Below the pieces are notes generated by a model. The model was not told the DNA's origin. It ran no database searches and was given only the letters and a program-made list of their open reading frames with translations. A stretch of DNA of 64,000 nucleotides from Promethearchaeota archaeon Loki_b32 (lineage in GTDB: Archaea > Asgardarchaeota > Lokiarchaeia > Sigyniarchaeales > SOKP01): the NCBI GenBank assembly GCA_005223125.1, contig NJBH01000007.1:1-64000 (forward strand). Direction: 5' to 3'. A program made the position numbers and the translations under genes. The stretch's first letter is position 1, and each line of letters starts with the position of its first letter. Below, one piece after another: positions 3,220 to 24,075 of the stretch.

Positions 3220-3441
3220 ATGAGATTAACTATTAGTTTTTAATAATACTAGTCTTTATTCATATAAATTATAGAAAACTTTTAAAATTTTTAATTATCT
3301 CTTTCTTTTCTACTCATTTCACGTACTATGATGGGACTATTCTTTTTATTTACCCTAAGAATTTTTTTTAACATTAAAAAATCAATATGTGTTCATTAAA
3401 AATTTCCTTATAATATAAATTAAAATCCCTCGGGTTTATAG

Positions 3442-4827: not shown

Positions 4828-4919
4828 GAATAACAAAGGGATTTCGAATATATTAATTTTAATATCCAGGACATTAAGCAAATTTTATAAATTTATTTAG
4901 CAATTGGAATTAAAATATG

Positions 4920-6413
4920 TCAATGTTCCAGTAATTTTCTCCATTCATCATAAACTTTTCCGATTATTAATTCTTCAGGATTATATTGAGAATTTTGAGT
5001 ATAAATCTTTATTAAATTTTCGGTTAAAGTTTTTATATCAGCTTGATTGTTTTTTAAGTTTAGTAACAACGGACTGTTTACATTAAAACTTACTCTTTCA
5101 TCCTCTGAAATTTTTAGATTTTCTCTAACAATCTCCTTAAATCTTGTATTGCGATCAGAAGATAATGCAATTGAAATATGCAAAATTTTACCAATAAGCA
5201 TAGAAAAGCTAGAAAGTACTAACCTACTACGCAGTCTTGAATTTTGTACTAGTTGTTCCCATTCAGATGAATAAATATACTTGATGGCATTGAAGTAATC
5301 TTTAATCAATTCTAGATTAAACTTATAACGACTATCAATTTCAGGAATAGGTAAATCTTCCTTATTAAATGCCTCATATTCTAAAATTTCTTGGATTATA
5401 TAATTCATAGCCCCCCACGATATCAATTCTCCTTGAATTCTTGGTAATCCTCGATTTTTCATGTCAATTATACCGTTAAAAGGGCTATCTTTATCTGTAT
5501 TCAAATACCTAATTAGTGAGGAAATTAAAGCATCTTTTTTATCTTTCTTAGTCATTGTTTCTTGACTATAATCATCTAACGTGCCTATTAAATCCTTCCT
5601 GAAATTCTTAGGAAGATTTTGTGTTTTATTTGCATGTGAAAAAGTTCTTCGAATAAAATTAAGTTTAATTCCTGTATCCTTGTTGTAAAATTCCCCAATA
5701 GCAATAGTTACTGGTCCTACCAATTTCAGAGAATCTGGATCTTCTGAAGCTATAGCTATATTTTCTAAAGCCCACATTCTTTGCTGTCCATCTAAAATCC
5801 AGCCTGGTTTTTCAGCATCATATACATGGCCATCATAAGTAATAATTATAACTCCTATTTCTTGACCATTATAATCTCGAAGTTTAGTATATTCTATTCT
5901 GTTTAAATCAAAATAAATAATTGCTGTAGACCACATTTCAGCTTTGGAAGATTTTAACCCCTCCTTTAATTCCTCAACCCATTTGTCATGCCTTTGTCTT
6001 TGTACACCCATACCAATTTCGTTTATTTTATCTGGTGAAGTATACCTATGAATTCCACAAATTTTTCGTAGATCATAGAAATTAATTAGCCCAACACACT
6101 GAAATAAGCTGAATTTAAATTCATTATCTGTTTCAAAATTTTCTTCTCTTTCTAAATTCCTCTTCATCCATTTTCCTATAACAAGAATTTCTATGGTCCC
6201 TTCGTCTTCGATTTTTTTATACATATATAAATTTTTTGTTCCAGGCCCCTGATTGATTGGTTCAATTTCTCCTCTATTTACCATTTGAGGTATAATTGTT
6301 CTGGTAGTATTTATATTTAGTTCTGCAATTTGAGATATTTCTCTCGCTGTCAATGGGAGGTACGCCCTACTTAAAACTGATAAAATTTTATCTTGTGATG
6401 TTAAATCCGACAT
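4920..6413 (-). CDS. DGQHR-domain (DndB/DpdB-like) protein with N-terminal winged HTH
   Basis: GVQRQ motif, ILDGQQR core motif, F...N..Q; N-terminal PLTAREISQIAELNINTTR HTH. Confidence 0.85.
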   Translation of the reverse strand: MSDLTSQDKILSVLSRAYLPLTAREISQIAELNINTTRTIIPQMVNRGEIEPINQGPGTKNLYMYKKIEDEGTIEILVIGKWMKRNLEREENFETDNEFKFSLFQCVGLINFYDLRKICGIHRYTSPDKINEIGMGVQRQRHDKWVEELKEGLKSSKAEMWSTAIIYFDLNRIEYTKLRDYNGQEIGVIIITYDGHVYDAEKPGWILDGQQRMWALENIAIASEDPDSLKLVGPVTIAIGEFYNKDTGIKLNFIRRTFSHANKTQNLPKNFRKDLIGTLDDYSQETMTKKDKKDALISSLIRYLNTDKDSPFNGIIDMKNRGLPRIQGELISWGAMNYIIQEILEYEAFNKEDLPIPEIDSRYKFNLELIKDYFNAIKYIYSSEWEQLVQNSRLRSRLVLSSFSMLIGKILHISIALSSDRNTRFKEIVRENLKISEDERVSFNVNSPLLLNLKNNQADIKTLTENLIKIYTQNSQYNPEELIIGKVYDEWRKLLEH

Positions 6414-6573
6414 AATTTCACCTTTTATTTTTATTTACTATATATAATATAATAATTTTCATATAAAAATCTTATTTAAGTTAATAATATCGAAATATTT
6501 ATAAGTATTAATTTTAATTATATTATTAAAAAAGTTAATATATAATTATTAATTAATATGAGGAGGTAGTTAT

Positions 6574-6909
6574 TTGAGAAGTTCTACTTTTTTTTTAAAA
6601 TTTAAAGAAGAAAATGGCTTCAATTACAGGAAAATTGTAAATATCCTAAATAACTTAAAATTTGATCATATTATTTATTTTGATGAAATTAATTTTTTGA
6701 CAGAGGAATTCTTACACCAGTATTCTTTATTAGAACGCCAAATTATTATAAAAAATCTTATTTCTGAAAATTATTCTCAATTGGAAATTACATTTGAGAT
6801 ATTTTCGAAATTTTGGGGAGAAAAGAATGATCCATTATTACTTAATAAAACAACATTAGATGTGTTAGATTTAATCAAAAAATCTGAAGGATGTTTAGAA
6901 TTGTATTAA
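6574..6909 (+). CDS. Hypothetical protein
   Basis: TTG start preceded by GAGGAGGT Shine-Dalgarno; co-oriented with the HerA fusion gene. Confidence 0.6.
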   Translation: MRSSTFFLKFKEENGFNYRKIVNILNNLKFDHIIYFDEINFLTEEFLHQYSLLERQIIIKNLISENYSQLEITFEIFSKFWGEKNDPLLLNKTTLDVLDLIKKSEGCLELY

Positions 6910-6930
6910 TAAAATGAGAGGAGATATAAA

Positions 6931-9270
6931 ATGAATCAAATTAAAAAATCTGTTAGTGATTTATTAGATAAAGGTTATGGTAGACTAATATGTGAGCAGG
7001 GTGGAAAGCGGGGAAGAGTTTTACATCAAGTATCCACAACATATTATAAAAGAATTTTTAAAGGGGGGAATAAAAGAAATAAAGTGAATTATAGAATTTT
7101 CAGTCAGAATTTAACAAAGCAAAAGATAGATATCTTAGCAGATATCAAAAAGAATCCTGATTATGAAATATATCAAGAAGATGTTAAGATTCTCTTAGAT
7201 AAAATACATTATAACATACGTATGATTGCCAAAACACATAGTAAAATTAATTATGCGATTGTTATACCAAAAAAGATTGAAATTGAATTCTTTGGTGGAG
7301 AAGCTTCTTTTGAAGTTGAAGAGGTTGGAAAAATTGGTGGATTGAAAATCAATGCTCGAGTTGATTGTCTGATTGAGTTAGATTCAGAGAAATTTATAAT
7401 AAGAGAATTTAAATCATATGAATTAAACAAAGATGATGAAGTGAGCAATTTAAAATCAAAAAATCATAGAGAATTTATGCAAACTTGCCTATATGGAATT
7501 ATTTTTGAAAAAGCAAGGCATCAGAAATGCGGAGCTGTTCAATTAGTGTATTTTCCAAATAAAGTTGTCTCCTATAATTTTACGGATGATTTAAGGGAAA
7601 CTGCTATAAAATTTGCAATGAATACAGCATTTGAAGGATTTAACGGTATCAATTTTGAGTTTACCTCAGAAGATGATGAAGATCATAATGATGTTAAAGA
7701 TAGCCATACCAAAATGAGTGATTTGCATATTAAATCTGCATCTACCACCTCATTTAGTGATCCATGGAATCATTATAATACTAACGGGAAATCTGAAGAT
7801 GAGGAAGGTTGTCTAGGAAGCATTAACACTGTTAAGGGAAAACCTCTTGAGCTTGTTATGGGTGGTGATAACCAGATGAAAGGATATTTATATCCTAATA
7901 AAGCACACCTCATAAGAGATGGATATTGCGTGATTGTTGAAAAAGAGGAGGATGGAGTGAGAATAATGTGCATTGTTAAAAAAATAGAATGCTCTGAAGA
8001 CCATTTTCCTGGAGAAACTTCAAGTCACAAAGAAGATAACTATAAAATTACTTTGAACCCTGTTGGGCAATTTACACCAGAAGGTTATCAGGCCTTGAGA
8101 CCTCAAACGGTAATTGGTGGAAAAATCAAAATACCAACGCAAAATGAGTTCTGCGAATTTAAAAAAATTCCCCAAAATGGAATGGAAATTGCAAGCGTAG
8201 AAGGATTAAATGCAGGAATTCCATATTTACTTAAAATAAGAACATTATATCAAAGTGTGTTCATGAGTGGGCAACAAGGTTCTGGGAAAACATCTGCATT
8301 GAAAGTACTATCACTTTTAATTGCTCAAGAGAAAGATTCTCCTGCACAAATTATTCTTGATAATGAAGGAGAATATGGTGATTTAGCAATTATTCCTTCT
8401 ACCAAACAATCAGCGAAATTAATGAGAATACATAGAATTAATGCTCTTAATCTCAATAATTTTAGGTTTATTAATATAGGCACAGATGAGGGTTTTTGTC
8501 TTACATTAAAAGCGATTGATCCTGTTGATTTACCTTATTTCATACATGAATTAACGCCAATATCTCACGATACCTTGCAAACAATAATTTATGATATTAT
8601 TGAAGAAAATAAGGGAAAGGAGTTTACACTTCCAGAACTAAAGAAATTTATTTTCTATTATATGGAAAATGAGATATATAGCGCGACATCTGGAACTAAA
8701 TCCGCAATAAGAAGGGCGTTAAATTCCATCTCTCTAAGAATTTTCGATTTATCCGATGTAGAACCAATCGATTTTGAATCTATGTTAATCCCTGGCAAAA
8801 TAACAGTAATTAATTCATACAATTTGAGAGATTCACATCAAAGAATTGTAGGGTTATATTTATTAGCTATTCTTCATAAACGTGCTTTAAAAGGAAAAGA
8901 AAAGCTTAAGGTTTTCTTACATTTGGATGAAATCCAACGCCTCCTTCCCAAATCGAGATCACAATCAGATTCGGAATACTTAAAACGTATTGTTAAATTT
9001 TTAGACGAAATTGTACATCGCGGTAGGAAAAGGGACTATGGAGTAGCATTTGCAACCCAGAGTATCATGGATGTGAAAAAAGAAATCATTGATCTGTGTA
9101 ATACTAAAATTTTCCTTCAGACACAAGGAAGTGGAAGCAACTACTTGAGGGAGTACTTTAATAACAAGCAAGATATAGAACGATTAAAGCGCCTTCCCCA
9201 AGGACATGCTTATATTACGAGTAAGGGGAAGCATGATCCAGTAGAAATCAAATTTCCTTATATAAATTAA
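6931..9270 (+). CDS. PD-(D/E)xK (RecB/Cas4-like) nuclease fused to HerA/FtsK-family ATPase
   Basis: ARVDCLIE...IIREFKS...QTCLY nuclease motifs; Walker A GQQGSGKT, LDNEGEY, Walker B LHLDEIQ, RGRKRDYGVAFATQ. Confidence 0.85.
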   Translation: MNQIKKSVSDLLDKGYGRLICEQGGKRGRVLHQVSTTYYKRIFKGGNKRNKVNYRIFSQNLTKQKIDILADIKKNPDYEIYQEDVKILLDKIHYNIRMIAKTHSKINYAIVIPKKIEIEFFGGEASFEVEEVGKIGGLKINARVDCLIELDSEKFIIREFKSYELNKDDEVSNLKSKNHREFMQTCLYGIIFEKARHQKCGAVQLVYFPNKVVSYNFTDDLRETAIKFAMNTAFEGFNGINFEFTSEDDEDHNDVKDSHTKMSDLHIKSASTTSFSDPWNHYNTNGKSEDEEGCLGSINTVKGKPLELVMGGDNQMKGYLYPNKAHLIRDGYCVIVEKEEDGVRIMCIVKKIECSEDHFPGETSSHKEDNYKITLNPVGQFTPEGYQALRPQTVIGGKIKIPTQNEFCEFKKIPQNGMEIASVEGLNAGIPYLLKIRTLYQSVFMSGQQGSGKTSALKVLSLLIAQEKDSPAQIILDNEGEYGDLAIIPSTKQSAKLMRIHRINALNLNNFRFINIGTDEGFCLTLKAIDPVDLPYFIHELTPISHDTLQTIIYDIIEENKGKEFTLPELKKFIFYYMENEIYSATSGTKSAIRRALNSISLRIFDLSDVEPIDFESMLIPGKITVINSYNLRDSHQRIVGLYLLAILHKRALKGKEKLKVFLHLDEIQRLLPKSRSQSDSEYLKRIVKFLDEIVHRGRKRDYGVAFATQSIMDVKKEIIDLCNTKIFLQTQGSGSNYLREYFNNKQDIERLKRLPQGHAYITSKGKHDPVEIKFPYIN

Positions 9271-9380
9271 TTCTTTTCTTTTTTTTATTTTCTATGTATG
9301 TTATGTGGAAAGATATAAAAAAGAATAAAAAGAATAATATAAAAATGTTTTATAACAGAAGAAAATAGGGACTATTAGAA

Positions 9381-10136
9381 ATGTTGAAAAAAGAGAGAAT
9401 GGAAATAATAAAAGAACTAAAACATTTAAAAAACAGACAGAATGAAAGCAATAAGGAGGTAAAAAAGCTACAAAATGAATTTTCCTATATGAAAAGCAAT
9501 ATTAATAAAAATGATGATGAAATAATGAAGAATAGTCTCAAATTAAATGAGTTGTACAACAAGAAAAATGAACTTAAGAAGATTAATACGTCGCTCATTA
9601 ATGAAGAAATAGAAAAACGACGAGTTGAAATTGAGGCTTTATACGAATCTCAAAGTGATAAACTACTAAATTTAGGTGGATTTAAAAAAGATAAAGATAG
9701 GCTTAATGCTGTTTTAAAAGAATTGAAAAAGGCACAAGAAAAACAAACTTTATGTTGGATATGTGGTAGTAATAACATAGGCAGAGACCATATTGAAAAA
9801 GAGTTAGAAGATTTAAATAAACTAATTAATCCACTTCAGGATAAATTAGATTCTATTAGAAAAAAAATTAGGATAAGTAAAGAACAAATTCTAAAGAACC
9901 AAGAATTGAAAAAAAGAAAAAATTTAATTCTTGATATTCAAAAACATATCAAACCCATTTTTGAATATACAGCGAAACTACAAATGGATAAAGATATTCA
10001 AGAAGAAAAAATAGAGCGCATCATAGCAGAAATACCTGCAATTGAAGCAAACATAGAATCACGAGGAAAAAGGATACAGCAAAAGGAACTGGAATTAAAA
10101 GTTGTCGAAGATAAAATTAAAAAAATGTTAGACTGA
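9381..10136 (+). CDS. Headless coiled-coil protein with Rad50-type zinc hook (CWICG); paralogue of the arm of 14423..16432
   Basis: Colinear similarity to the central part of the SMC-like ATPase (KK.R.EII.E.K; L.EL.K..E....CW.CG...I.R..IE; IESR.K.I.Q); no Walker motifs. Confidence 0.75.
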   Translation: MLKKERMEIIKELKHLKNRQNESNKEVKKLQNEFSYMKSNINKNDDEIMKNSLKLNELYNKKNELKKINTSLINEEIEKRRVEIEALYESQSDKLLNLGGFKKDKDRLNAVLKELKKAQEKQTLCWICGSNNIGRDHIEKELEDLNKLINPLQDKLDSIRKKIRISKEQILKNQELKKRKNLILDIQKHIKPIFEYTAKLQMDKDIQEEKIERIIAEIPAIEANIESRGKRIQQKELELKVVEDKIKKMLD

Positions 10137-10162
10137 TATATTTAAGATTTTAAAAGATATAG

Positions 10163-10837
10163 GTGTTTAAAATAACAGCTTTAGAAAAATTAACGAGAAC
10201 AAAATTAATATCCTTAGCTAAAGAATGTGGTATTACGCTTAAAACTCAATATAAATTAAATAAATTAGATATTATAAGAATAATTAGAAAGTCTAAAATT
10301 GAAAAGAACAAGCTACAAGACATATTTTTACAATATGTAAATTTATATTACTGTGAATTTTGTAGACAGGATCATTATTTTAACAGCGATATAGGAAGAA
10401 GACATCTAAACTATACAAAAGAATTAAAAGCAGAAAGATATAGAGCTGCTAATCAAAAAACAATCAGATCGAGTAATAATCATGTCATTTGTAAACATTG
10501 TGGAAAGAAATATATGGATGAAAAGTTTTTAAAAAAGCATATAAATAATGCTCATTTTGCTCCAATCGATTTACACAGAATGTCTCTTAAAGAAGCAATT
10601 TTTTATGTAGAGGAAAAATTAGAGGAGTGTATTGATCGTGGAATAGGTGGCTTAAAATTAATACATGGATATCATCATGGCACAATACTTCAAGAATATT
10701 TCCGTTCTGAAAAGTTCAAAATAGATATGAAGCGCGTTGGGCTTTTTATAAGTATATCCAATATTAGAGACTTAGGTTATACACTAGTAAAAATTAATAT
10801 GGAAGAGCTTCAAAAATGTAAGTATCATCTATCTTAA
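10163..10837 (+). CDS. Smr-domain protein with N-terminal helix-extension-helix-like segment and zinc fingers
   Basis: IDLHRMSLKEA...LKLIHGYHHG Smr motif; CEFC and CKHCGKKY...LKKHINNAH C2H2 finger. Confidence 0.8.
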   Translation: MFKITALEKLTRTKLISLAKECGITLKTQYKLNKLDIIRIIRKSKIEKNKLQDIFLQYVNLYYCEFCRQDHYFNSDIGRRHLNYTKELKAERYRAANQKTIRSSNNHVICKHCGKKYMDEKFLKKHINNAHFAPIDLHRMSLKEAIFYVEEKLEECIDRGIGGLKLIHGYHHGTILQEYFRSEKFKIDMKRVGLFISISNIRDLGYTLVKINMEELQKCKYHLS

Positions 10838-10908
10838 ATAGGTTAGGAAATGTTGAAAATGATATAAAATTAACAAATTATAATAGAAATATTAAAATTA
10901 ATTATTAT

Positions 10909-11565
10909 TTGAAGAATCTAAAAGGGTCAATTTTGAAAAAAGAAGAAAGATCTTTCGATAATAGAGCTGAATTTAGAAAAAGCGTAAGAGATTTATTGAA
11001 GAAACATAAGAGATTAGATCGAATCAAACTTTTTTGCCCTTCTTGTGAATCTCAATCAATATCTATTGCAATTAACAAAAATGTAACCGAAGTAAAATGC
11101 TCTACCTGTTTTATTACAGAAAGGATAAAAAAAAAGTACATCGCTTACGATCTAATTGATATATATGGAGATTTCCTTGATCTAATTAATGCAGACCAAG
11201 AGATTCAGAAATTAGAAAAGCGTATTATAGAATTAAAGAAAGAAAGTAAGTATGAATTAAAAAAAGATAACGAGTATAGTAGTAAAGTGCTCTGCTACTC
11301 AAAAATATCGGATATATGTAGGGCAAAAACGGCATCACTAGAGTTGTTACTAGAGGACAAGGACGATGTTGATAAGGAGGAGAAAGATAATTGGAAAATA
11401 AAATTAGAAAAGTATAAGAGACTTGAAAAAGAAGCAGAGAATAACTTAGAAAGAGAAAATAAAATCAATGAAGAATCTTTATTTACTGAAAGTGAAAAAA
11501 ATGATAAAAAGGAAGAGAAGAAGATAGTTGATATATTTTCAGACCCGGGGTTTTTAGATTTTTAA
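10909..11565 (+). CDS. Diverged paralogue of the extended Elf1 at 23497..24075
   Basis: FCPSC...VKCSTC zinc ribbon, IDIYGDFLD, EESLFTESE, DIFSDPGFLDF all match the Elf1 gene. Confidence 0.8.
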   Translation: MKNLKGSILKKEERSFDNRAEFRKSVRDLLKKHKRLDRIKLFCPSCESQSISIAINKNVTEVKCSTCFITERIKKKYIAYDLIDIYGDFLDLINADQEIQKLEKRIIELKKESKYELKKDNEYSSKVLCYSKISDICRAKTASLELLLEDKDDVDKEEKDNWKIKLEKYKRLEKEAENNLERENKINEESLFTESEKNDKKEEKKIVDIFSDPGFLDF

Positions 11566-11620
11566 GAAGAATTGAAAAACTAATCGAAAAACAAGAAAAA
11601 AGCTAAGGGGAGAAGTAAAA

Positions 11621-11938
11621 ATACCAAAAAGAAAGGTAAAAGACCCCATTGTCATTAGGAGGAATATTGATGAAGCTTTAAAGCGAATTCACCGATCTCA
11701 AGGAGTTTTTTACTGTGCGTGTGGAATTTATCGTTCAAAAAAAAAGAATTTAATTTACCATCTTAGTCAAAATCCTGATTGTGTTTCAAGATTACTAAAA
11801 ATAGAATTCGATAAAGGAGAAACAAGTTTGTATAAATTTTCTTCCTTATCAAGTTTAGAAAATAATATATGTGATATTTGTGGTCGAGAATGCGCTAATG
11901 AAGCGGGTGTAAGGATTCATAAGAGCAAAGTACATTGA
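11621..11938 (+). CDS. Zinc-finger protein (C2HC-like plus C2H2) not listed in the ORF track; probable ATA start
   Basis: Frame open 11576-11938: ...YCACG...IYHLSQNPDC...CDICGRECANEAGVRIHKSKVH*; GGGGAG lies 8 nt before ATA-CCA-AAA-AGA-AAG. Confidence 0.6.
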   Translation: MPKRKVKDPIVIRRNIDEALKRIHRSQGVFYCACGIYRSKKKNLIYHLSQNPDCVSRLLKIEFDKGETSLYKFSSLSSLENNICDICGRECANEAGVRIHKSKVH

Positions 11939-12122
11939 GTGTGAATATTAAAATTTGAAGAAAGTAATTTTCATCCCAAAAAAAAAGTTAAAAAGAAAGC
12001 GCGAACTTCTAAATGAAAAGAGATTCTCTCAACATTATCTACAATATTACATAAAAGTTCAAGATTTTCTTCAAGGTCTTCTATTTTTTTTTAAGTATAT
12101 CTTTTTGTCTTTTTGGATCCAT

Positions 12123-13175
12123 TTAAAAATATCTCTCTTTAGTGCTTTTTATAAATTCCCATAAATATCTTAGACGAGATTTTTCCATCATTTTATCAAT
12201 GAATGTCTCATAAGCACCCCAACCTTGTTTAATCAACTCATGAGATTTCTCTTCTTCCTGTTCCATTACCCATTTATTATGAATTGCTCTAATTTTCCAA
12301 TCAGAACATAAATGTTTCCATCTGCGATATCCATGTTTGGATATTTTTCGGCATTCGGGGCACCTACATTCGACTAATTTTTTCTTTTCATCATCAGAAA
12401 AGATTTTATTATAAGTCAATCCATTTTTAGTTTTTAATCCAAAAGTAGCACTTCCATTACCTGCATATCTTTCTGCTGTTTGGGGTAATACAATTTTTCC
12501 ATATGCTGCTTTTCTTCTATAACCTGAAGAATCAGAACTTTTTATTTCGCAAAAAGCTGCAAAATGATAAGTTAATGGAGATGCTCCAACACCAAAAACA
12601 TGAATATCAATATCTAATTTTTTTCCTAATGAACTAAGGTATAGAAATGCCTCGTAAATATTTTTATTTGGTTGGCGATCACCAAAAAAGCCCTTGAAGT
12701 TTTCTTTAAGGATAAAAGCACTTCCTAAGGCAATATAGTTAAAATCCTTTTTTTGTAAAACATGAATGTTTTTATCTAAAGTAGTTTTATTCCATCCATG
12801 TAATGCGGGAATAAGATTAAGATTTGTACTATTATCCCAATAATCAATGTTTTCTATGGTTTTCTGCCAATTGTTCTTCATCTTCCTAATATCCATTTGA
12901 GGATCTAAAGGGTAATCAAAAGGAACTGTATATCTTGGTTTTAATTTCTCTTGAATATCAATAATTGTATCTAAATTAATAGATACCTTTTTCTTCTTTT
13001 GATGATAATTATTTTTAAAGATAGCAAAAGCACCATTGTCTAAAAATAAATTTTCATATGGATATTTTATTTTAGGCTCATCTGATTTCAAAAAGTTATA
13101 TACACTATCCATGACATTGCCATGTTGTATTCCTTCTATGAAATTATTTCCTAATTCCCCTGCCCAATAGTCCAT
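12123..13175 (-). CDS. tRNA-guanine transglycosylase-fold protein without PUA domain (DpdA-like candidate)
   Basis: LFLDNGAF, VPFDYP, IALGS, IHVFGVG, SSDSS (catalytic Asp positions), Zn site CRCPEC...HN. Confidence 0.8.
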   Translation of the reverse strand: MDYWAGELGNNFIEGIQHGNVMDSVYNFLKSDEPKIKYPYENLFLDNGAFAIFKNNYHQKKKKVSINLDTIIDIQEKLKPRYTVPFDYPLDPQMDIRKMKNNWQKTIENIDYWDNSTNLNLIPALHGWNKTTLDKNIHVLQKKDFNYIALGSAFILKENFKGFFGDRQPNKNIYEAFLYLSSLGKKLDIDIHVFGVGASPLTYHFAAFCEIKSSDSSGYRRKAAYGKIVLPQTAERYAGNGSATFGLKTKNGLTYNKIFSDDEKKKLVECRCPECRKISKHGYRRWKHLCSDWKIRAIHNKWVMEQEEEKSHELIKQGWGAYETFIDKMMEKSRLRYLWEFIKSTKERYF

Positions 13176-13183
13176 AAAAATCC

Positions 13184-13786
13184 TTATTTTACTGACTTAA
13201 GTTTTTCATCTAATTTTTTTAAATTATCTTCTAAAATTAATAATAAATCAGTGTCTGCTGTCTCATGCAATTTTCCAGATATTTTTATAACTTCAAAATT
13301 TAAACCTAATTTATTGAAAGCAATTTCTAATGATTTAAGCGATTCTGAGCCATTTCTTAAATAAGATATGAATTTAATATAATCATTAATTTTTTTAGCG
13401 TTAAAAAAACCAAATATTCTTTTACTTATAATCTCAATATATTCTTTTTTAATTTTATCAGTTTCAAATAGAGGATTCCAATCATAAGAATCAAAAGGAT
13501 ATCTATCACAGAATTCATAGGGTATTATACCTGCATTGGAGATTATGATTTTTTGGATATTTTTATATTTATCAATAACTTCATTAAAAGCACGATGGAT
13601 TGGTGAATTATAATAAGGTTTTATAGCAGCACACGGTAAAAATATTATGGTTTTGGTATTCTCTTTTATTATATAATCCTCCTTAAAATAGGATTGCCAA
13701 ATCTCAAAATGAGGATGGATCAATTGTGCCTTCCCCACGCCATTTAATCCAATGAAATCTTTTTCTAATATATCTGGTGGTTTCAT
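13184..13786 (-). CDS. Stand-alone ArcS catalytic-domain (DUF5591-like) protein
   Basis: PCAAIKPYYNSPIH matches the ArcS motif PC-X3-KPY-X2-S-X2-H; also GIIPYE...YPFDSYDW. Confidence 0.75.
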   Translation of the reverse strand: MKPPDILEKDFIGLNGVGKAQLIHPHFEIWQSYFKEDYIIKENTKTIIFLPCAAIKPYYNSPIHRAFNEVIDKYKNIQKIIISNAGIIPYEFCDRYPFDSYDWNPLFETDKIKKEYIEIISKRIFGFFNAKKINDYIKFISYLRNGSESLKSLEIAFNKLGLNFEVIKISGKLHETADTDLLLILEDNLKKLDEKLKSVK

Positions 13787-13869
13787 AATCGTTTATAATC
13801 TTAAAAGGAAATTTAATATTATTACTAAAATAAACAATTTAATTTAATTAAACATTTAGGAGAGGTTCC

Positions 13870-14328
13870 TTAAATCTTTTCTGACGGATCATCCCAAACC
13901 TTTCCAATAATAAAATCATGATTAGTAACATGAGAAAAATATGATGGTTTCTTGTTTGTTATTATATTTCTAATGTAATTATCAAATGTAATCACAAATT
14001 CTTTCAAATGTTCTAATTTACCTAAATATTCATAAAGAATCATAGCCCCAACAGCAGAATTTCTTAATTTTGGTTTAGATATTCCTGGTATATCAATTTT
14101 TAATGGATTTTTAATTAGTGAATAGTGAAGTGGAGTAATTATTTCAGTATTATAATTACTCATTTCTTTCATTTTCTTCGGAATATTTGGGCTGCCTCTA
14201 CCGCTTGGATATTTTGGGGGACATATTCCTAAAAAAGCTTGTCTAATTGAATTTGGAACATTTTTCGATTTTTGTGAATCATATTGAAATTCAATAATTA
14301 CTAAAATATATCTAGTTTTATATTTCAT
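13870..14328 (-). CDS. Hypothetical protein, paralogue of 16553..17014
   Basis: Shared Y..V.IEF.YDS..SKN.PN..R.AFLGI.PPK.P.GRGSP and SLIK.P.KID.PG....KL.N.AVG..ILYEY.G.LE. Confidence 0.75.
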   Translation of the reverse strand: MKYKTRYILVIIEFQYDSQKSKNVPNSIRQAFLGICPPKYPSGRGSPNIPKKMKEMSNYNTEIITPLHYSLIKNPLKIDIPGISKPKLRNSAVGAMILYEYLGKLEHLKEFVITFDNYIRNIITNKKPSYFSHVTNHDFIIGKVWDDPSEKI

Positions 14329-14422
14329 GTAATATGGTGATGGTATTTTAAATTCTTCTATTTTTAAACTTCATTTTAGGTTAAAAAGTTTGAAAATGAA
14401 GATATTTAATATTAATACAAAT

Positions 14423-16432
14423 CTAAATCTCTTCTTTTATTAAATCTTCATCAGTAACCCTGGTTAATATCACAAACCAATCATTTTCCTTAGCTATATT
14501 CTTTAAATAATTATAGAAAATTTCTCTACGTTCATTATCCATTTTTAAAATTATATCATCTCCAACAATAAAGGGTATCTCTGGATTATATGTTTCTTTA
14601 GCAGATATTTGTAATAATGATGAAACAATAACTCTCTCACCCGCGCTCAGAGAATTTATTGCTTGTGGATTAGGATTACCTTTTCTAATAATTTTTAATT
14701 TATTATTATCTTCAATATCTAGATATATTTTTTCGAACTTCGGCAATTTAAGTTCCTCTATTATTTTTTCAATATTTTTATTGAATTTATGTGCGGCTCC
14801 TTCTCGTTGTTCTTTTATATTTTTTTCTAGATGAGAATTAATAGTAGTAAATATTTCATCAAATTCTTGAACAATTTTTTTTGCTTTTAGAAGATCAAAT
14901 TCTTGTTTTAAAATTTCTATACTTTTACAATCATCTATATTTAATTCTAAATTTGAGATTTGGTTTTCAATAGCACCCTTTTTCGTATTTTGTTTTTTTG
15001 TTTCTTCCCTTGTTTTGTTTATTTGAGTATCATCAATTATTTGTTTCTCGAGTTCATTTCTTTTTTCTACTAATTGATTAATGGTTTTCTTCCGACTCTC
15101 AATGATTTTTGTAAACTTCTTTACTTCCATATCTTCCTTATTTTTTTGTTCTTCTTTACTACTATTTTCTTCTGCAAGTTCTATTAATTTACTTCTTAAT
15201 AATTCAATTTTTTTCTTTACATCAGGAAGGTTTGCTTTTTTTGCTTTTTCTTTCTGTTTAATATTTATAATTTCCTTATTATCTTCGATCTGAGTTTCTA
15301 AATCTCTATAATTTTTGCGATAAGGAGTTAATTCATCTTGTGTACTTTTTAAATCATTTTCAATATCGTTTCTATCTATTTCTTTACCCCCACAAACCCA
15401 ACAGATTACTTTAGTTTCTTTGGTCTTATCCAATTCTCTTAAAATACCTTCATACTTCTTCTCGTGGTTTTCTAGTATACTAATCTCGGGTAATAATAAC
15501 TTTTGTTTTTCAAAATTCTTCTCATTTTCTTCATGTAGTTGATTTATTTCATTATTTAATTTACTCATATCTATTTTCATATAATCGTTTTTTTCCTGTT
15601 CCAATTTATCCATATTTTTTGTTTCATCTTCAATTGTATTTTTGTTTTCTTTTATCTTCTTATCTAAATCATTAACAGTTTTCTTTAGACTTAGGAATTT
15701 CTTCTCAGTATCTGAATTCAATCTTTGTTTATCCTTGATTTCTTCAATAATTTCCTTACGTTTTTTTTTCATTTCTGTATTCGATTCAATTTTTTCTAGC
15801 TCCTTTTCAATATTAACTTCCAGCTGTCCTATTTTCTTTATAACTTCCTCAAGTTCCGTTTTATTCTTTTTTAATTCTCCCTCAAACTTCTTTTTATTAT
15901 TCTCCTTTGTCTCAATTTCTTCCTTTTTAGCAGTAATTAAATCTGAATAAGATCCAACAATGTCTTCTATTGATTCATAATCTTTTGCTAAGGACATTTC
16001 AGTTACTATCCATGAAAAATCAGATAATCCATGATCAATATAATTCTGTATTTTAGAATTTTCTACTAGCATACTACAATAAATAAATTTTTGGTTACCA
16101 GGAATATTTATTTTTTCAGAACCATCTCGATTTAGTTCAATAAATTTTTTAACATCATCATAATGAAGTTCAATATTGGCTTTTTCTTTATTATAATTTA
16201 AGAGGGGTGAAAATATTGCATTATCTGCTTTGGCAATTCCAAAGCTTATAGCAGTATTCCTAATTTCTTCTGAGTTTATTGGAATTGATAAAGCTAATGC
16301 ACAAGATTTAAGTATTCTGCTTTTGCCAGAAGCTGTTCGTCCTCTGATCTCTGTTACTACGCCACTATTAAATTCCCAAGTTTCTTCCCCTTCTCTTTGC
16401 CCAATATTCACTAATTTTAAGACTGCTTTCAT
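14423..16432 (-). CDS. Archaea-specific SMC-related ATPase (ClsN/Sph/Rad50-like) with zinc hook
   Basis: N-terminal NIG...GRTASGKS Walker A, long coiled coils, CWVCG hook, LSAGER signature, PFIVGDD Walker B. Confidence 0.85.
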   Translation of the reverse strand: MKAVLKLVNIGQREGEETWEFNSGVVTEIRGRTASGKSRILKSCALALSIPINSEEIRNTAISFGIAKADNAIFSPLLNYNKEKANIELHYDDVKKFIELNRDGSEKINIPGNQKFIYCSMLVENSKIQNYIDHGLSDFSWIVTEMSLAKDYESIEDIVGSYSDLITAKKEEIETKENNKKKFEGELKKNKTELEEVIKKIGQLEVNIEKELEKIESNTEMKKKRKEIIEEIKDKQRLNSDTEKKFLSLKKTVNDLDKKIKENKNTIEDETKNMDKLEQEKNDYMKIDMSKLNNEINQLHEENEKNFEKQKLLLPEISILENHEKKYEGILRELDKTKETKVICWVCGGKEIDRNDIENDLKSTQDELTPYRKNYRDLETQIEDNKEIINIKQKEKAKKANLPDVKKKIELLRSKLIELAEENSSKEEQKNKEDMEVKKFTKIIESRKKTINQLVEKRNELEKQIIDDTQINKTREETKKQNTKKGAIENQISNLELNIDDCKSIEILKQEFDLLKAKKIVQEFDEIFTTINSHLEKNIKEQREGAAHKFNKNIEKIIEELKLPKFEKIYLDIEDNNKLKIIRKGNPNPQAINSLSAGERVIVSSLLQISAKETYNPEIPFIVGDDIILKMDNERREIFYNYLKNIAKENDWFVILTRVTDEDLIKEEI

Positions 16433-16566
16433 TGTTGCTTTTCACCAAGATATTTCTCTATTTTATTTCGAAATTCTTTAATAAAAATTGCTTCATCTAA
16501 ACCTTCTCGAACTGAAGATTCAATATACTCAACAATTTCATCAATTAGTTTTTTATTTTGCGACAT
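16429..16566 (-). CDS. 45-aa helical microprotein coupled to the SMC-like gene (not in ORF track)
   Basis: MSQNKKLIDEIVEYIESSVREGLDEAIFIKEFRNKIEKYLGEKQQ*; stop overlaps the SMC ATG (ATGA); start overlaps the upstream gene. Confidence 0.6.
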   Translation of the reverse strand: MSQNKKLIDEIVEYIESSVREGLDEAIFIKEFRNKIEKYLGEKQQ

Positions 16567-17014
16567 CCTTTAAATCATAACCTATAATTAGTTTAATTGA
16601 AGTGATTTCTGAATACCATTTTGGTTTTTCACTTTTTTTTTCTAAAAATTCAGCTATCTTAAGGCAACAATCTTTATAATCTTCAAGAAGACCAATATAT
16701 TCATAAAGAATAATTGTTCCTACAGCTGTATTTTTTAATTTATATTCTCTTTCTCCAGGCAAATCGATTTTTACTGGCTTCTTAATTAAAGAGAAGTAGA
16801 TTGGATATAGAACTTCTTCATTAGGATTGCATAAGTTATTAAGATCTCTTAAAATTGGACTCCCTCTCCCTTTTGGGTGTTTAGGAGGATATATCCCTAA
16901 AAATGCTTCTCTAACTTCGTTTGGTATATTTTTACTACTCTTAGAGTCATATTTAAACTCAATAACTACAGAGAGATATTTTGTATCATAGTCTAAATCA
17001 AACACTTTTGCCAC
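16553..17014 (-). CDS. Hypothetical protein, paralogue of 13870..14328
   Basis: High similarity to 13870..14328; GTG start. Confidence 0.75.
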   Translation of the reverse strand: MAKVFDLDYDTKYLSVVIEFKYDSKSSKNIPNEVREAFLGIYPPKHPKGRGSPILRDLNNLCNPNEEVLYPIYFSLIKKPVKIDLPGEREYKLKNTAVGTIILYEYIGLLEDYKDCCLKIAEFLEKKSEKPKWYSEITSIKLIIGYDLKDVAK

Positions 17015-17024
17015 CTTTTTCTAT

Positions 17025-18214
17025 TTAATCTTTTAAAATATTCTTATCTTTTAATATTTTACTTAAATCTTTTATTATTTTAATGAAATTAACGAATTCA
17101 TCGTTACTCGATTGAAGATAATCATTTTTTAAACCCTCTCGATGTTCTAGGATTTCTTTAATCAAACTTAAGATTGGTATTAATTTTGATGAATGATTAA
17201 CTAATTCATCGAAATCTTTAACATTGATATCTAAATCTAGTTTTTGTAAGTTATCATCACTTTCGTTTAAATTTTCATAACTTGTAACTGGCGTACTAAG
17301 GATTTCTTGCCGATCAACATGAATTTCCGTCCCTCCAACAAGTTCTAATGATCGGTATAGCATGTTAAAATCTAATTTTTCGGTGATTGGAAATGCACCA
17401 ACAGCTTTGAATAATGCTACTCTAATACCTCTTTCAATATCAGAACCAGAATACCCATGGGTTAATGTTATCACCCCATTTACATCCTGTCGTCTTAATT
17501 CTTCTATTAAAAAATCATCATTTCTTATAAGATCACTACTTTCTTCAATCTCTTTCTCAATTGAATAAATTTTTTCGTATTCTATATCGATTTCATCAAA
17601 TATTAAAGCATCAACATGTATTTCAGCATCACTTATTCTGTTTATGAATGATTTTAACATTTTTGTTCTAAACTCGTAGCTAAGGGAAGACCTTTATAAT
17701 TAACAATATCGATTGTCTGTAAAAAGGCAATCACAGCTCGTTTAATCTCCCCAACTTCATGTACATTAGACCTTTCGGACCCAATAGCATCAATTTCATC
17801 AAAGAATAATATGAAGTTACCATTCCCTTCAGCTATATCCGCAGCTGTTTCTATCACTTGACGAATATTTCTTATTGTATCCCCTAATAATGATGAAACC
17901 AATCTATTAGATTCTACAACACAAACTGGAATCTTATATTTTTGAGCAAAAGCCCTTGTTAATGAGGTTTTTCCTGTACCTGGGGGACCAAATAATAGCA
18001 TTGTTAAATTGGGTGCTAATTTTGTATTTTTTAATCTCTCAGCGAAACGTTCATAATTATCTAATGCTCTAAAAAAATCTTCTAATCTTTCCTTTTGTTC
18101 TTCATTACCAATAATATCATCTACTTCTTCAATTATATCCATTTCAAAGTAAACAGTACCATAATTACCTAGCATTGCTTTAATTTCTTCATGATTATAT
18201 TTATCTTGAGAAAT
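17025..18214 (-). pseudogene. AAA+ ATPase broken by an internal deletion/frameshift near 17660-17680
   Basis: GPPGTGKT and FFDEIDAIG in 17654..18175; the lid (THGYSGSDIER) is in another frame (17025..17660); the sensor-1/Arg-finger segment is missing between GLPLA and YEFRTKML. Confidence 0.7.
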
Positions 18215-18228
18215 TTTTACTCATCCTC

Positions 18229-19533
18229 TTATTTTTTTTCTTTATTAATTTTTTCGCAAAATAATGCTATTTCATTAATTAAATCTTTCAAATTATCAAT
18301 TTGAGAACCAATAAAATTGAAGATCTCCTTTCTGTATTGTACACTATCCCGGATCTTCATTTTATCCATTCCTAAATAATTTGGAAAACATGACAATTTC
18401 ATTAAATTTGGTAAAATTTTTTCATTAGTTTGTAAATCTTTAAAAATACTATAGAAGATATTATCATCTGAAAGTTTCCATTTTAAAATACCCATATAAA
18501 TTAATAACGCAAAATTCATTGAGATCCAGTTTACCAATTCTTTTGATAAAAATCCCCTTCTTATAGAAGCAATGGCTAAATAATATAATAAGAGTGTTTC
18601 ATTACTAAATTGAGGGATATATCTTGTTTTACCATCCTTCTGAATATCTTCTCTTAAGAAATTATTAGCTAATAAAATATCAACAAATGATTCTTGTGGA
18701 GCTAAAAAAATCTCATCGATTATTCGTAACCCTATTCTTTCAGCAATACTTTTTACCGCTTCTTCTTCAGCATTAGCTATTGAGTCAATATATGGCTCAA
18801 ATACGTCATTTGTTAAAAGCATTGGAATCTCATAATTAGTTTTTTCAGGGAAATCACCATAATTGGGGTCTAAATTGTAAAGAGAAGTAATATTATTAAT
18901 AATTTGATACACTTTTGGAGAAACACTGGGAATAATGAAATAATCTGGATTTTTTAATTTATCTCGATAAAATGTATGTGTTAATAATATATGCCTTTGA
19001 CACTCATAATAGTCTTTAGATTTATCTAATAATTTCTTATAAATCGTTTGTAAATTGAATCCTCTTGGAAATACAATTTCTTCAATAAACTTAACTAATC
19101 GATATAGATATGTATTTTGGAAGTTTTTTTGATCAGGATTAGTAATTTGCTGTAAAATTTTTAGAGCTTCAATGGATTCTTTTAAATGCTCTATAATAAA
19201 ATCTTTTATCTCAATTGTTGAGATTTTATTTCTAAATTTAATTATAAAATTCTTTATTATCTCATAAATATTAGATCTATACATTGCTGAAAATTCTGAT
19301 AAGGCTCTTACTTTTCGAATGTTCCTTTTTTCCTCTTCTTCACGTATTTTATCCAATATTTCTAACTCAGGATCTAAAAATAACTCGTGATCTAGATCGA
19401 TAATAATCCTACGAGTTTCTCTCAATATAGGTCTCATATGGCTAATGAAGGTTAGATATCTAGGTAAAATGTCTGTCCACTTTTCCCTCCTTCTACCCGG
19501 CCTAATCCTTTCCCTAAATTTCTTACTACTAAT
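18229..19533 (-). CDS. Hypothetical protein (ORF-track ATG at 19437; frame extends to an SD-preceded ATT at 19533)
   Basis: Long ORF inside the minus-strand gene run; no motif recognised. Confidence 0.65.
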   Translation of the reverse strand: MSSKKFRERIRPGRRREKWTDILPRYLTFISHMRPILRETRRIIIDLDHELFLDPELEILDKIREEEEKRNIRKVRALSEFSAMYRSNIYEIIKNFIIKFRNKISTIEIKDFIIEHLKESIEALKILQQITNPDQKNFQNTYLYRLVKFIEEIVFPRGFNLQTIYKKLLDKSKDYYECQRHILLTHTFYRDKLKNPDYFIIPSVSPKVYQIINNITSLYNLDPNYGDFPEKTNYEIPMLLTNDVFEPYIDSIANAEEEAVKSIAERIGLRIIDEIFLAPQESFVDILLANNFLREDIQKDGKTRYIPQFSNETLLLYYLAIASIRRGFLSKELVNWISMNFALLIYMGILKWKLSDDNIFYSIFKDLQTNEKILPNLMKLSCFPNYLGMDKMKIRDSVQYRKEIFNFIGSQIDNLKDLINEIALFCEKINKEKK

Positions 19534-19559
19534 TATTATCTCCTCATTTTCTTTAATTC

Positions 19560-20795
19560 TTATGTATCTTCATCACGATCAAGACCTAAAGTTACCTCTG
19601 TGAATATATTGGCAATTTCTACAAAGATTGGTATTTCAACTCGACATAAATTCCCAAGGATCCATTTATTTACATCTTTTAGAAGAAATCTTATTTGATT
19701 ATGAATTTTTTTATTTATATCAGTATCAATTATATTATTCAACCAACGCCCCCCACCTAGCCTAAAAGCAACAATTTTTATTAGAGGTTCGAATAACGAT
19801 TCTAAAATTTGTCTCATCATCCATGATTTTGGAATTATACTCATGTTGTCATTATCAAAAGATGGATCTTTTAATATTGGGTGATTGACTCTTACAGTAA
19901 GCTTAGGCATAAAGCTTAATAGGAGGATCAGGGCAAAAATAGCCGATATACCATTTATGGTAAAGGAACCTCCTATTTTTTCGAGATCTTTTCGATTAAT
20001 CGCTAAATTTGCTAAAAAAAGGCTAATAAACACATTTCTATCGAATGCTTCTGAAATATGAGCATATACTAAATTGTTTTTCTCACTTTTTTTATTGATA
20101 CTGATACCGAGCTCAATTTCCCCTCCATCCTCTCCTATTTCATTCCTATTTTCTTCATTATCAGTTTTATCGATGATTATATATTTTTCCTGCAAAATTG
20201 CTAGTATTCCTGGAGGAAATGTATAGAAAGTATAAACTTTTTTCTCGCTTGTTCTCTTATCTCTATCAACTATATGTTCTTTTGACACTAATCCAAATAA
20301 ATTGATGAGTTCCTGAAGTTGTTTTTTAATATAGCTTCTGGGGTTATTTGGATCTCCGAACATTGCATAAAATTGGTGATCAACTATATGAAAATCATTT
20401 CTATTAGCAAAGGCTTCTACAATTCTATCTATTATTGGTCCTTGAGCATAGGATGCAATCGCTTTAGCTTTTGAAGTTATGAAACCATTTAATAATTCAT
20501 TTATGATAAAATCTTGCTCGTGAGTCCTAGATTTGAGGATTTTACTAAAGGCCACAGCTAAATTCGATGTATTAGGAAAGAAAGCATTTTGAATCGTGTT
20601 ATCTATTGCTCTTTTGAGAAGCTCTCCATCATTTCTAGGAAATTGAGTCCGTAGAATATCTAATCTATCTAATAGAGCATCTCTAGCTCCAGGAATATTT
20701 TCAACATTTTTGTTTTTTAATTCTACAATTGCTTCTTCTAATCCTTCAGAAAAAGCTTCCAATAATTCCTCCCATTTAGATTCTAGAATTGACAT
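19560..20795 (-). CDS. Hypothetical protein
   Basis: 411-aa ORF, co-oriented with its neighbours. Confidence 0.7.
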   Translation of the reverse strand: MSILESKWEELLEAFSEGLEEAIVELKNKNVENIPGARDALLDRLDILRTQFPRNDGELLKRAIDNTIQNAFFPNTSNLAVAFSKILKSRTHEQDFIINELLNGFITSKAKAIASYAQGPIIDRIVEAFANRNDFHIVDHQFYAMFGDPNNPRSYIKKQLQELINLFGLVSKEHIVDRDKRTSEKKVYTFYTFPPGILAILQEKYIIIDKTDNEENRNEIGEDGGEIELGISINKKSEKNNLVYAHISEAFDRNVFISLFLANLAINRKDLEKIGGSFTINGISAIFALILLLSFMPKLTVRVNHPILKDPSFDNDNMSIIPKSWMMRQILESLFEPLIKIVAFRLGGGRWLNNIIDTDINKKIHNQIRFLLKDVNKWILGNLCRVEIPIFVEIANIFTEVTLGLDRDEDT

Positions 20796-23373: not shown

Positions 23374-23496
23374 TCCTAAAAAATTTTACTAATTCCTTCG
23401 AAATTTTTAACATAAAAGCAAAAATATTTTAGTTTTTCTTTTCTTTATTCTAATTGAATATAGATTTAATTATATTAAAATTTGGTAGAGATACTT

Positions 23497-24075
23497 ATGG
23501 GAAGAAGAAAACGTAAACAAGTTTCACCGAAACGGGTAAAAAGAGTACCGAAAATTTTCACCTGTCCAGAATGCGGTGAAAAAAGTGTTAAAGTCACTGA
23601 TATTAAGAAAAAAGGTGCTTTTGCCACTGTTAAATGTGGAAATTGTGATTTAACTAAAGATGTATTAATCAATTCTATTTCAGAACCCGTAGATGCGTTT
23701 GGAGATTTTATTGATATATTTTATGCAGACCAAGAATTACAAAGATTAGAAAGAAGAATAAAAAAAATAAAAGAAGAGCATGAATGGGGTGAATTAGCAT
23801 TAGCTTATTCTATTTTATCAGATCTTTGTAAAATAAAAGCAGCTATATTATTAGATGAAGAAGATGTTAACTTAGATGAAGTTAACGATTGGAAAATAAA
23901 AAGTGAGGAATATAAGAGACTTGAAAAAGATACTATATTAAAATTAGATACCGAAGAATTAGAACGTGGAGTTCGAACTGATGAAGAATCTTTATTTACT
24001 GAAAGTGAGACAAAAATAAAGAAAGAGCGCAAAATTGAGGATATATTTGACGATCCTGGATTTTTAGAATTTTAG
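23497..24075 (+). CDS. elf1: Transcription elongation factor Elf1 with long C-terminal extension
   Basis: MGRRKRK...PKIFTCPECG...ATVKCGNC...EPVDAFGDFID is the Elf1 signature. Confidence 0.9.
   Translation: MGRRKRKQVSPKRVKRVPKIFTCPECGEKSVKVTDIKKKGAFATVKCGNCDLTKDVLINSISEPVDAFGDFIDIFYADQELQRLERRIKKIKEEHEWGELALAYSILSDLCKIKAAILLDEEDVNLDEVNDWKIKSEEYKRLEKDTILKLDTEELERGVRTDEESLFTESETKIKKERKIEDIFDDPGFLEF

Follow-up and report, generated by a model that had tools for sequence, protein, structure and literature searches.

The 64,000-nucleotide stretch analysed here (the window) is positions 1 to 64,000 of contig NJBH01000007.1 from the Asgard archaeon Promethearchaeota archaeon Loki_b32. It carries two adjacent genes that encode a protein with the fold of tRNA-guanine transglycosylases (TGTs), P0001, and a stand-alone catalytic domain of archaeosine synthase (ArcS), P0002. 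Judged by genomic context and homology, we think it probable that the two proteins are a DpdA-like DNA transglycosylase and an ArcS2-type partner that mark DNA in a restriction–modification-like setting. The pair would then be a cellular archaeal counterpart, with a predicted chemistry, of a gene pair so far known only from viruses. 7-Deazaguanines are familiar DNA constituents from bacterial Dpd islands, which make 2′-deoxy-preQ0 (dPreQ0) and dADG, the 2′-deoxynucleoside of 7-amido-7-deazaguanine, and from phages and archaeal viruses. The two genes are as follows.

12123–13175, minus strand: P0001, DpdA-like PUA-less TGT-fold transglycosylase, a predicted base exchanger (350 residues)
13184–13786, minus strand: P0002, ArcS2-type stand-alone ArcS C1/DUF5591 domain, a predicted tailoring enzyme for the nitrile of inserted preQ0 (200 residues)

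P0001 had originally been predicted to be a TGT that retains its catalytic Asp motifs and zinc site but has no PUA domain, and this description holds. The protein matches the Pfam TGT family at 38.7 bits (cut-off 26.3), and the Pfam domain search identified neither a PUA domain nor any other C-terminal domain; its alignment to the archaeal TGT (arcTGT) of Pyrococcus horikoshii (chain 1iq8) stops at about residue 326 of the 582 residues of 1iq8. Residues D46, D87, D215, C270, C272, C275 and H299 are invariant in an alignment of 16 family members. When a profile of these members is searched against solved structures, D46 aligns with the 'VDSGSF' motif (Asp95) of the P. horikoshii enzyme, D87 with Asp130, D215 with the 'LFDSASY' motif (Asp249), and C270, C272, C275 and H299 with the CxCxxC...H zinc site. 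An AlphaFold model of P0001 (pLDDT 76.5, pTM 0.78) matches TGT TIM-barrel structures.

P0002 matches DUF5591 in Pfam at 53 bits. Its residues 51–64 (PCAAIKPYYNSPIH) contain the exact PC-X3-KPY-X2-S-X2-H motif of the ArcS C1 domain, as had been claimed, and this segment is invariant across seven homologues. The gene lies upstream of that for P0001, with an 8-nt gap between its TAA stop codon and the P0001 ATG. Comparison with orthologues on two related contigs gives ratios of non-synonymous to synonymous substitution rates (dN/dS) of 0.09–0.18 for both genes. They are therefore under purifying selection, and are functional genes rather than a chance pair of open reading frames (ORFs). A complex prediction for P0001 and P0002 with alignments returned a score of 0.00, which weighs neither for nor against binding.

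By profile comparison, the nearest characterized relatives of the two proteins are the DpdA and ArcS2 pair of Sulfolobus virus STSV2. In hhalign comparisons, P0001 aligns with STSV2_15 (DpdA) at E=8.8e-22 (score 151, probability 99.4%) and with the genome's own arcTGT at E=2.5e-10 (score 80), so that its homology to STSV-like viral DpdA is significant and closer than that to the cellular tRNA enzyme. The P0001 family and STSV2_15 have in common the block xDxSxYRxKAxxGxxxLPxxGERYxG. P0002 aligns with STSV2_16 (ArcS2) at E=1.2e-15. It lacks the four-domain architecture of ArcS (N-terminal TGT-like domain, C1, C2 and PUA), and matches the canonical ArcS model NF040592 at 48.4 bits against a 440-bit cut-off, over model positions 285–435 only. 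It has the features of ArcS2 (PF17884), namely a stand-alone DUF5591 domain with the motif, adjoining a predicted DpdA-type gene; the name was given to core-only viral ArcS proteins (Hutinet et al. 2023, PMC10516641). We also considered a split ArcS, with P0001 as the N-terminal part and P0002 as C1, and rejected it: P0001 matches the TgtA rather than the ArcS model, and keeps the catalytic Asp residues.

The pair is independent of the tRNA archaeosine pathway, because the genome (4.13 Mb in 71 contigs, about 29% GC content, 95.5% complete) holds a separate arcTGT, a full-length ArcS and RaSEA. The original prediction had called for a search for canonical genes and had raised the possibility that the pair might be the only arcTGT and arcS genes of the genome; this is not the case. 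The canonical arcTGT lies on contig C61, where it scores 458 bits (TgtA cut-off 350 bits), and the full-length ArcS gene is split between the end of contig C29 and the start of contig C44, with RaSEA (TIGR01210, 346 bits) directly downstream. The two contig ends overlap by 849 bp at 96% identity, which probably reflects strain heterogeneity in the assembly, with one ArcS gene and not two.

The pair might instead be an RNA-directed paralogue that installs preQ0 or archaeosine (G+) at an extra tRNA position or in another RNA, by analogy with the arcTGT of Thermoplasma, which is a multisite enzyme. This would fit the retention of all the catalytic and zinc residues of arcTGT, the best match of P0001 among the curated models, which is a weak one to TgtA (TIGR00432; 23.7 bits, below the 350-bit equivalog cut-off), and the fact that ArcS chemistry is native to tRNA. 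However, P0001 has no RNA-binding C-terminal domain in Pfam, its profile lies nearer to a DNA-modifying DpdA of viral origin than to the arcTGT of its own cell, its distribution is patchy and island-borne rather than lineage-wide, with defence genes as neighbours, and a sister clade pairs the enzyme with a DNA clamp-like protein (below). We regard an RNA-directed role as quite unlikely.

The gene pair is accessory and is carried by a variable stretch of the chromosome.

About 3220–17400 (about 14 kb): variable genomic island carrying the pair, with borders taken from DNA matches to sister species

When the DNA is compared with that of 30 genomes from the same genus, the window segments at about 1–3220 and about 17400–20000 are conserved and adjacent in relatives, whereas about 3220–17400 has no counterpart there. 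The island flanks are about 0.6 kb apart in two of these genomes (G009 and G003), where an AAA gene lies directly beside the homologue of the window gene at 2323–3219. A third genome (G012) has other cargo at the same site, comprising an SMC-like gene, small paralogues and a PAPS reductase, without TGT or ArcS2. A search of 40 relatives at E≤1e-20 turned up no homologue of P0001; of 301 Asgard genomes (this one counted among them), two have a close copy and 11 have a match at E≤1e-30. Across 1.84 billion representative proteins the family is rare, its profile matching 559 at E≤1e-3 and 35 when the threshold is tightened to E≤1e-30. A provirus was considered and rejected: the roughly 14-kb island contains no integrase, capsid or other viral structural matches, and there are no att-like repeats at its borders.

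Homologues of P0001 with 38–92% identity occur, by contig or genome label, in Lokiarchaeota, Helarchaeota, Freyarchaeia, Methanobacterium formicicum BRM9, Methanothermobacter, Nitrosopumilaceae and Bathyarchaeia. A pattern scan of GTDB genome contigs gave seven loci, too few for statistics, and neighbour clustering covered 15 loci of the family. An ArcS2 homologue lies immediately upstream of the TGT-like gene in eight of these 15 loci; the two genes overlap by 4 nt in two Methanobacteriales loci and in a viral contig from IMG/VR (L008, L010 and L051). Instead of ArcS2, six of the 15 loci have a gene of about 420 codons directly downstream of the TGT-like gene.

L016 11050–12306, L017 11091–12365, and downstream of the TGT-like gene in L026, L027, L028 and L031 (Nitrosopumilus, Freyarchaeia, Bathyarchaeia): PCNA-like partner of the TGT-like gene

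The N-terminal 250 residues of this partner have the PCNA sliding-clamp fold (Atlas TM-score 0.72–0.75, by target), and 83% of the members of its own cluster have PCNA_N. The protein also has a C-terminal domain of about 160 residues without assigned identity. In a quick tree, which took in no bacterial DpdA, DpdA1–4 or bacterial TGT, the P0001 family forms one clade (SH-aLRT 96) that splits into ArcS2-linked and PCNA-linked subclades. The presence of a DNA clamp as the alternative partner in the sister subclade argues that the family works on DNA. The Freyarchaeia locus has its own extra QueC gene and a nucleoside 2-deoxyribosyltransferase-like gene; the PCNA-like partner and this QueC together indicate DNA and 7-deazaguanine chemistry.

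Two kinds of effector module recur around the family. The first consists of a gene for a 262–285-residue protein, a 1116–1539-residue ATPase, NurA and HerA; four loci with ArcS2 carry it, as does the Freyarchaeia locus with the PCNA-like partner. The second, made up of a DEAD/ResIII helicase and an ATPase, accompanies the PCNA-like partner at four loci of thaumarchaea and, in part, occurs beside ArcS2 in M. formicicum. Genes of the McrBC, DISARM-like and TIR kinds also lie nearby in loci of the family, and PADLOC assigned no meaningful family to the conserved partner genes of loci other than ours. A two-gene 'writer' that is shuffled with nuclease and translocase modules in patchy islands is a restriction–modification-like signature. 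We favour a DNA substrate in a cellular setting because of this accessory island distribution, the defence neighbours, the PCNA-like partner in the sister clade and the homology to the STSV2 proteins.

More distant PUA-less TGT-like proteins form a further subfamily in other Asgard genomes (L041–L050; ORFs of 353–411 codons, about 110–145 bits to the family profile). This subfamily is present in all five sampled genomes of one Asgard genus, and one contig carries two tandem copies.

Related genes are also carried by viruses. A tblastn search with P0002 found STSV1 and STSV2, STSV4, Vibrio phage nt-1 and Methanobacterium virus PhiF1, a virus of Methanothermobacter whose ORF75 is 45% identical to P0002 (MK994522.1, about 72368–73018). 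No TGT-like gene was detectable in the scanned 10.5-kb stretch of PhiF1 (L032), and ORF75 could be an orphan tailoring gene that leans on a DpdA-like enzyme of the host. One IMG/VR contig has ArcS2 followed by TGT, in the order seen here and with the 4-nt overlap noted above; in the tree its TGT branches as sister to the cellular clade, and there are weak matches to tail-fibre and endolysin genes near the pair. Neither a tblastn search of 50,697 phage records with P0001 nor a scan of IMG/VR for the pattern of a P0001-type gene gave a match, but these negatives are of limited sensitivity because the family hidden Markov model did find the TGT on the IMG/VR contig. As far as homology indicates, the same module is common to archaeal viruses and cellular islands, as it is in bacteria.

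These viral relatives raise the possibility that the pair performs the same chemistry in the opposite role, as cargo or a relic of a virus or mobile element that shields the element's DNA from host restriction. DpdA with ArcS2 in STSV1 and STSV2, the ArcS2 of PhiF1 and the gene order on the IMG/VR contig would all fit such an origin, as would the absence of a dedicated restriction module beside the pair in our island. We nevertheless consider it unlikely. Beyond the lack of viral hallmark genes in the island and the phage search without a match, the island is syntenic in three diverged genomes (this one and two other Loki-type contigs, at 65–90% protein identity), its other genes are of defence type, and in the chromosomes of cultured methanogens the pair is tightly linked to the NurA–HerA or helicase modules.

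For the DNA-marking role that we prefer, P0001 would use the double-displacement mechanism of TGTs, through Asp46 and Asp215 and with a structural zinc ion, to replace a guanine in double-stranded DNA with preQ0 or with a closely related 7-deazaguanine. P0002, a core-only archaeosine synthase predicted to be co-transcribed with P0001, would then attach an amine at the nitrile that the inserted base carries and so give 2′-deoxyarchaeosine (dG+) or a preQ0-lysine-type amidine. The pair would form an accessory DNA-marking module of a defence island, wired in most other hosts to the NurA–HerA or helicase modules. Here it sits within a DGQHR/SMC/PAPS-reductase/nuclease–HerA system, and no restriction module is dedicated to it.

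Published work on ArcS bears on this scheme. The ArcS of Thermococcus kodakarensis moves lysine onto preQ0, needs as substrate only the preQ0 nucleoside and no tRNA structure, and is active only in complex with RaSEA (Yokogawa group, PMC11298593); that of Methanocaldococcus jannaschii uses NH4+, Asn or Gln (PMC11298593). Because these amine donors differ, the product here could be either dG+ or a preQ0-lysine-type adduct. The idea behind the original prediction, that viral DpdA and ArcS-type enzymes together yield dG+ in DNA, holds only in part: it is borne out at trace level for phage nt-1 and not for STSV2. DpdA2 of nt-1 alone gave 926 dPreQ0 per 10^6 nt in Escherichia coli plasmid DNA, and DpdA2 with ArcS2 brought dPreQ0 to 0 with only 4–7 dG+ per 10^6 nt (PMC10516641). 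The nt-1 protein is the one ArcS2 tested to date, and its conversion of dPreQ0 to dG+ in DNA, at trace level, is the sole case shown. The virion DNA of STSV2 contains 2′-deoxy-7-carboxy-7-deazaguanosine (dCDG) and no dG+, even though its host lacks the pathway (PMC10516641). DNA marking by the pair is favoured by the nucleoside-only substrate requirement of the T. kodakarensis enzyme and by the dG+ made by the nt-1 proteins, and the nt-1 figures would accommodate a major product other than those looked for.

A bolder version of the DNA-marking scheme, which we consider doubtful, takes up this last point. It supposes an as yet undescribed, archaea-wide 7-deazaguanine restriction–modification family in which ArcS2, acting without RaSEA, makes a bulky preQ0-lysine-type amidine and not dG+ as the DNA mark, the PCNA-like clamp and ArcS2 are alternative partners, and the NurA–HerA and helicase modules read the mark. 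In our island, fusion of the writer with a PAPS-reductase (phosphorothioate-type) system would give a doubly marked chromosome that uses salvaged preQ0. The bulky product would be compatible with the nt-1 data because dPreQ0 fell from 926 to 0 yet only 4 dG+ per 10^6 nt appeared.

The combination of a TGT-fold enzyme with a lysine-transferring ArcS could also serve to conjugate a nucleobase to protein, placing a 7-deazaguanine on a defence protein in the manner of Cap9 and Cap10 of type IV CBASS. TGT-fold enzymes of defence islands can target proteins (bioRxiv 10.1101/2025.04.06.647259), ArcS couples the preQ0 nitrile to the lysine amine (PMC11298593), and the setting is a defence island. We think this analogy very unlikely to apply, since a QueC-like Cap9 partner and a CD-NTase are both missing, PADLOC gives no Cap10 match for P0001 and just a weak one to DpdA (13.6 bits), and the nearest homologues are viral DpdA and ArcS2 proteins, from viruses whose virion DNA is modified, with the PCNA-like partner again in the sister clade.

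Several observations weigh against the proposal that the pair marks cellular DNA. The first concerns classification. P0001 scores 15.9 bits against the bacterial DpdA model NF041059, which has a 200-bit cut-off, and plain sequence and fold place it equally near to tRNA TGTs and to the solved DpdA structure 7UI4: the family profile matches 7UI4 at E=0.088, and a Foldseek search of the PDB with the P0001 model finds all TGT structures about equal (TM-score about 0.5–0.6), so that DpdA-like and tRNA-type enzymes are not separable by this comparison. We infer the DNA substrate, the inserted base, the product and the self-marking role from context and homology. The second concerns the enzyme partner, as the RaSEA on which T. 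kodakarensis ArcS depends for activity (PMC11298593) has no gene beside the pair. The third concerns the immediate surroundings. The DGQHR and HerA genes close to the pair are part of a system that also occurs with no TGT, and the pair lacks here the NurA–HerA or helicase module that is present in other loci.

The main internal counter-evidence to present-day activity is the supply of preQ0, whose source is unaccounted for in this genome. The original prediction had suggested a check for queCDE. A QueC fusion gene that encodes 522–552 residues in sister species is cut to a C-terminal remnant of about 300 bp, between the same flanking genes (C21, 57653–57949); neither QueD nor type-I FolE nor a transporter of the YhhQ type was detected in the genome, and the best match in a search for QueE scored 35 bits. 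The canonical arcTGT shares the problem. Because QueC is deleted and QueD, FolE and YhhQ are undetected, both the tRNA pathway and the pair would rely on salvaged 7-deazaguanine, or on genes that sit in the missing 4.5% of the genome. Similar QueC remnants occur in two more species of the genus (G003 and G004), and arcTGT, ArcS and RaSEA have been kept in this genome despite the loss of QueC. Of the cellular route to an archaeosine-like base in DNA that had been predicted, its separateness from the tRNA pathway, its island location and the resemblance to STSV2 stand, and the origin of the precursor does not find an explanation in the genes present.

The island holds other genes that resemble components of defence systems.

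3442–4881, minus strand: PAPS-reductase-family Fe–S protein, BrxP/SspD-like (Pfam PAPS_reduct 9.6e-41, with Fer4; PADLOC BrxP 1.3e-52, SspD 4.6e-22)
4920–6413, minus strand: P0125, winged helix-turn-helix–DGQHR protein, DndB/DpdB-like (PADLOC DpdB 8.9e-28; motif LDGQQRMW, with DGQQR)
6931–9270, plus strand: P0126, ATPase of the HerA/FtsK type, probably with a PD-(D/E)xK nuclease at its N terminus (779 residues; PADLOC HerA 2.9e-17, mad8 1.2e-17)
13870–14328, minus strand: P0003, 152 residues, directly upstream of ArcS2, a paralogue of 16553–17014; a context gene of the neighbouring SMC/DGQHR/PAPS-reductase system
14423–16432, minus strand: P0004, SMC-like ATPase of the ASRP family (NCBIfam ASRP 3e-58; weak PADLOC match to LmuB), flanked by two paralogues of about 150 residues

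The PAPS-reductase protein is probably a second, different DNA-modification enzyme. P0125, which lies about 6 kb from the pair, scores 78.9 bits against the NCBIfam DpdB model, under its 300-bit cut-off, and 79 bits against the DGQHR domain, over its 58.85-bit cut-off. On the PADLOC match and the comparison with G012 we considered P0125 as the DpdB of the pair, and rejected it because its homologues head PAPS-reductase operons that contain no TGT. P0126 has a Walker A motif (GQQGSGKT) and a D...EFK...QxxxY pattern, both read in its sequence, and a weak Atlas lead (score 0.78) points to PDDEXK_1; we regard P0126 as a candidate for a restriction effector. Taken as a whole, the patchily distributed family shows linkage of the modification genes to NurA–HerA or helicase modules; P0126, which belongs to a system also found elsewhere without the pair, is the sole candidate effector here. 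The pair may be a partner of this nuclease–HerA protein or an orphan writer.

The TGT-free system is seen in a conserved Loki/Hel operon at three loci (L053, L054 and L055), with the order DGQHR, a protein of about 148 residues, a tiny ORF, an SMC-like gene, PglZ and a BrxP-like PAPS reductase; at L053 the operon has a nuclease–HerA gene upstream of it in divergent orientation. All three operons are without TGT and ArcS2. Homologues of P0003 sit between their DGQHR and SMC-like genes, and P0004 is 33–38% identical to the products of the SMC-like genes (640–644 residues). Window positions 3442–17014 correspond to a rearranged copy of this operon that has no PglZ. The operon looks like an archaeal variant of a BREX type 4 or phosphorothioate-related system with a DGQHR head, and by these gene comparisons our pair is lodged inside a rearranged, PglZ-less system of the BREX-type-4-like kind.

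The arrangement resembles several described systems and differs from each. Like our pair, DpdA and ArcS2 of STSV1 and STSV2 are an adjacent PUA-less TGT-fold protein and core-only DUF5591 protein with the PC-X3-KPY-X2-S-X2-H motif (PMC10516641), and the STSV2 host, too, seems to be without preQ0 synthesis, a parallel to the supply gap in Loki_b32. The STSV genes are viral, whereas ours are chromosomal. STSV2 DpdA precedes ArcS2, the reverse of the order here, is shorter (291 against 350 residues) and in the alignment lacks the CxCxxC zinc motif that the P0001 family has, and the modified base of STSV2 DNA is dCDG, not dG+ (PMC10516641). The P0002 match to ArcS2 of Vibrio phage nt-1 is at 29% identity, and nt-1 differs in being a bacteriophage that encodes its own FolE, QueD and QueC and has a degenerate ArcS motif; the scanned part of its genome contains no match to P0001.

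Bacterial Dpd systems (DpdA, DpdB and DpdC with DpdD–K) likewise have a TGT paralogue that marks host DNA (here predicted), a mobile island and a conserved pair of catalytic Asp residues, and their islands also carry helicase and ATPase restriction genes. In the P0001 family, however, the effectors are NurA–HerA or other helicases and not DpdD–K. The Dpd systems include DpdB and DpdC, whereas DpdC (DUF328) was not found in our genome and the DGQHR neighbour is below the DpdB cut-off and part of another system. Tailoring in Dpd gives an amide, and ArcS2 here would give an amidine. The canonical arcTGT and ArcS–RaSEA pathway has in common with the pair the fold, catalytic residues, zinc site and ArcS C1 motif. 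By contrast, P0001 and P0002 both lack the C2 and PUA domains, P0002 is in addition without the N-terminal TGT-like domain, and no gene for RaSEA lies next to theirs.

In the library that we searched, we found no paper on a cellular archaeal DpdA/ArcS2 system or on ArcS-type tailoring of chromosomal DNA. The closest, from 2026, describes HerA-centred BREX-related (BRC) systems that sometimes include a TGT and a GNAT protein, with components that differ from ours (PMC12839542). As here, these loci combine a TGT homologue, proposed to be a DNA marker, with HerA, and they extend to archaea. Their defining components are PglZ, DUF6079, a STAND NTPase, DUF4007 and GNAT, of which none turned up here, and the partner in our island is ArcS2, of which that paper makes no mention.

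If the DNA-marking role is correct, archaea that include Asgard lineages and cultured methanogens would put archaeosine-type chemistry on their own DNA as a mark of self. This would account for the same genes in archaeal viruses (STSV1 and STSV2, PhiF1 and the IMG/VR contig), and tractable hosts would be available in which to find the product and the nucleases that read it. The ArcS2-linked and PCNA-linked subclades would be a natural experiment on the retargeting of a tRNA enzyme to DNA.

Some further features of the window were noted. Two tRNA genes of about 102–104 nt (51195–51296, minus strand, and 52514–52617, plus strand) were identified by Rfam and missed by ARAGORN, presumably because of introns. 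At the border of the island, an AAA ATPase that is a single ORF of 369–412 codons in relatives is split into overlapping halves (17025–17660 and 17654–18175), and a protein of 445–510 residues that is likewise encoded by a single ORF in relatives is split into 773–1729 and 1793–2326, 63 nt apart; these splits are either frameshifts or sequencing errors. Two Elf1-like zinc-ribbon paralogues lie on the plus strand, one inside the island (10909–11565) and one outside it (23482–24075), and related Elf1-like copies flank the same hotspot in sister genomes.

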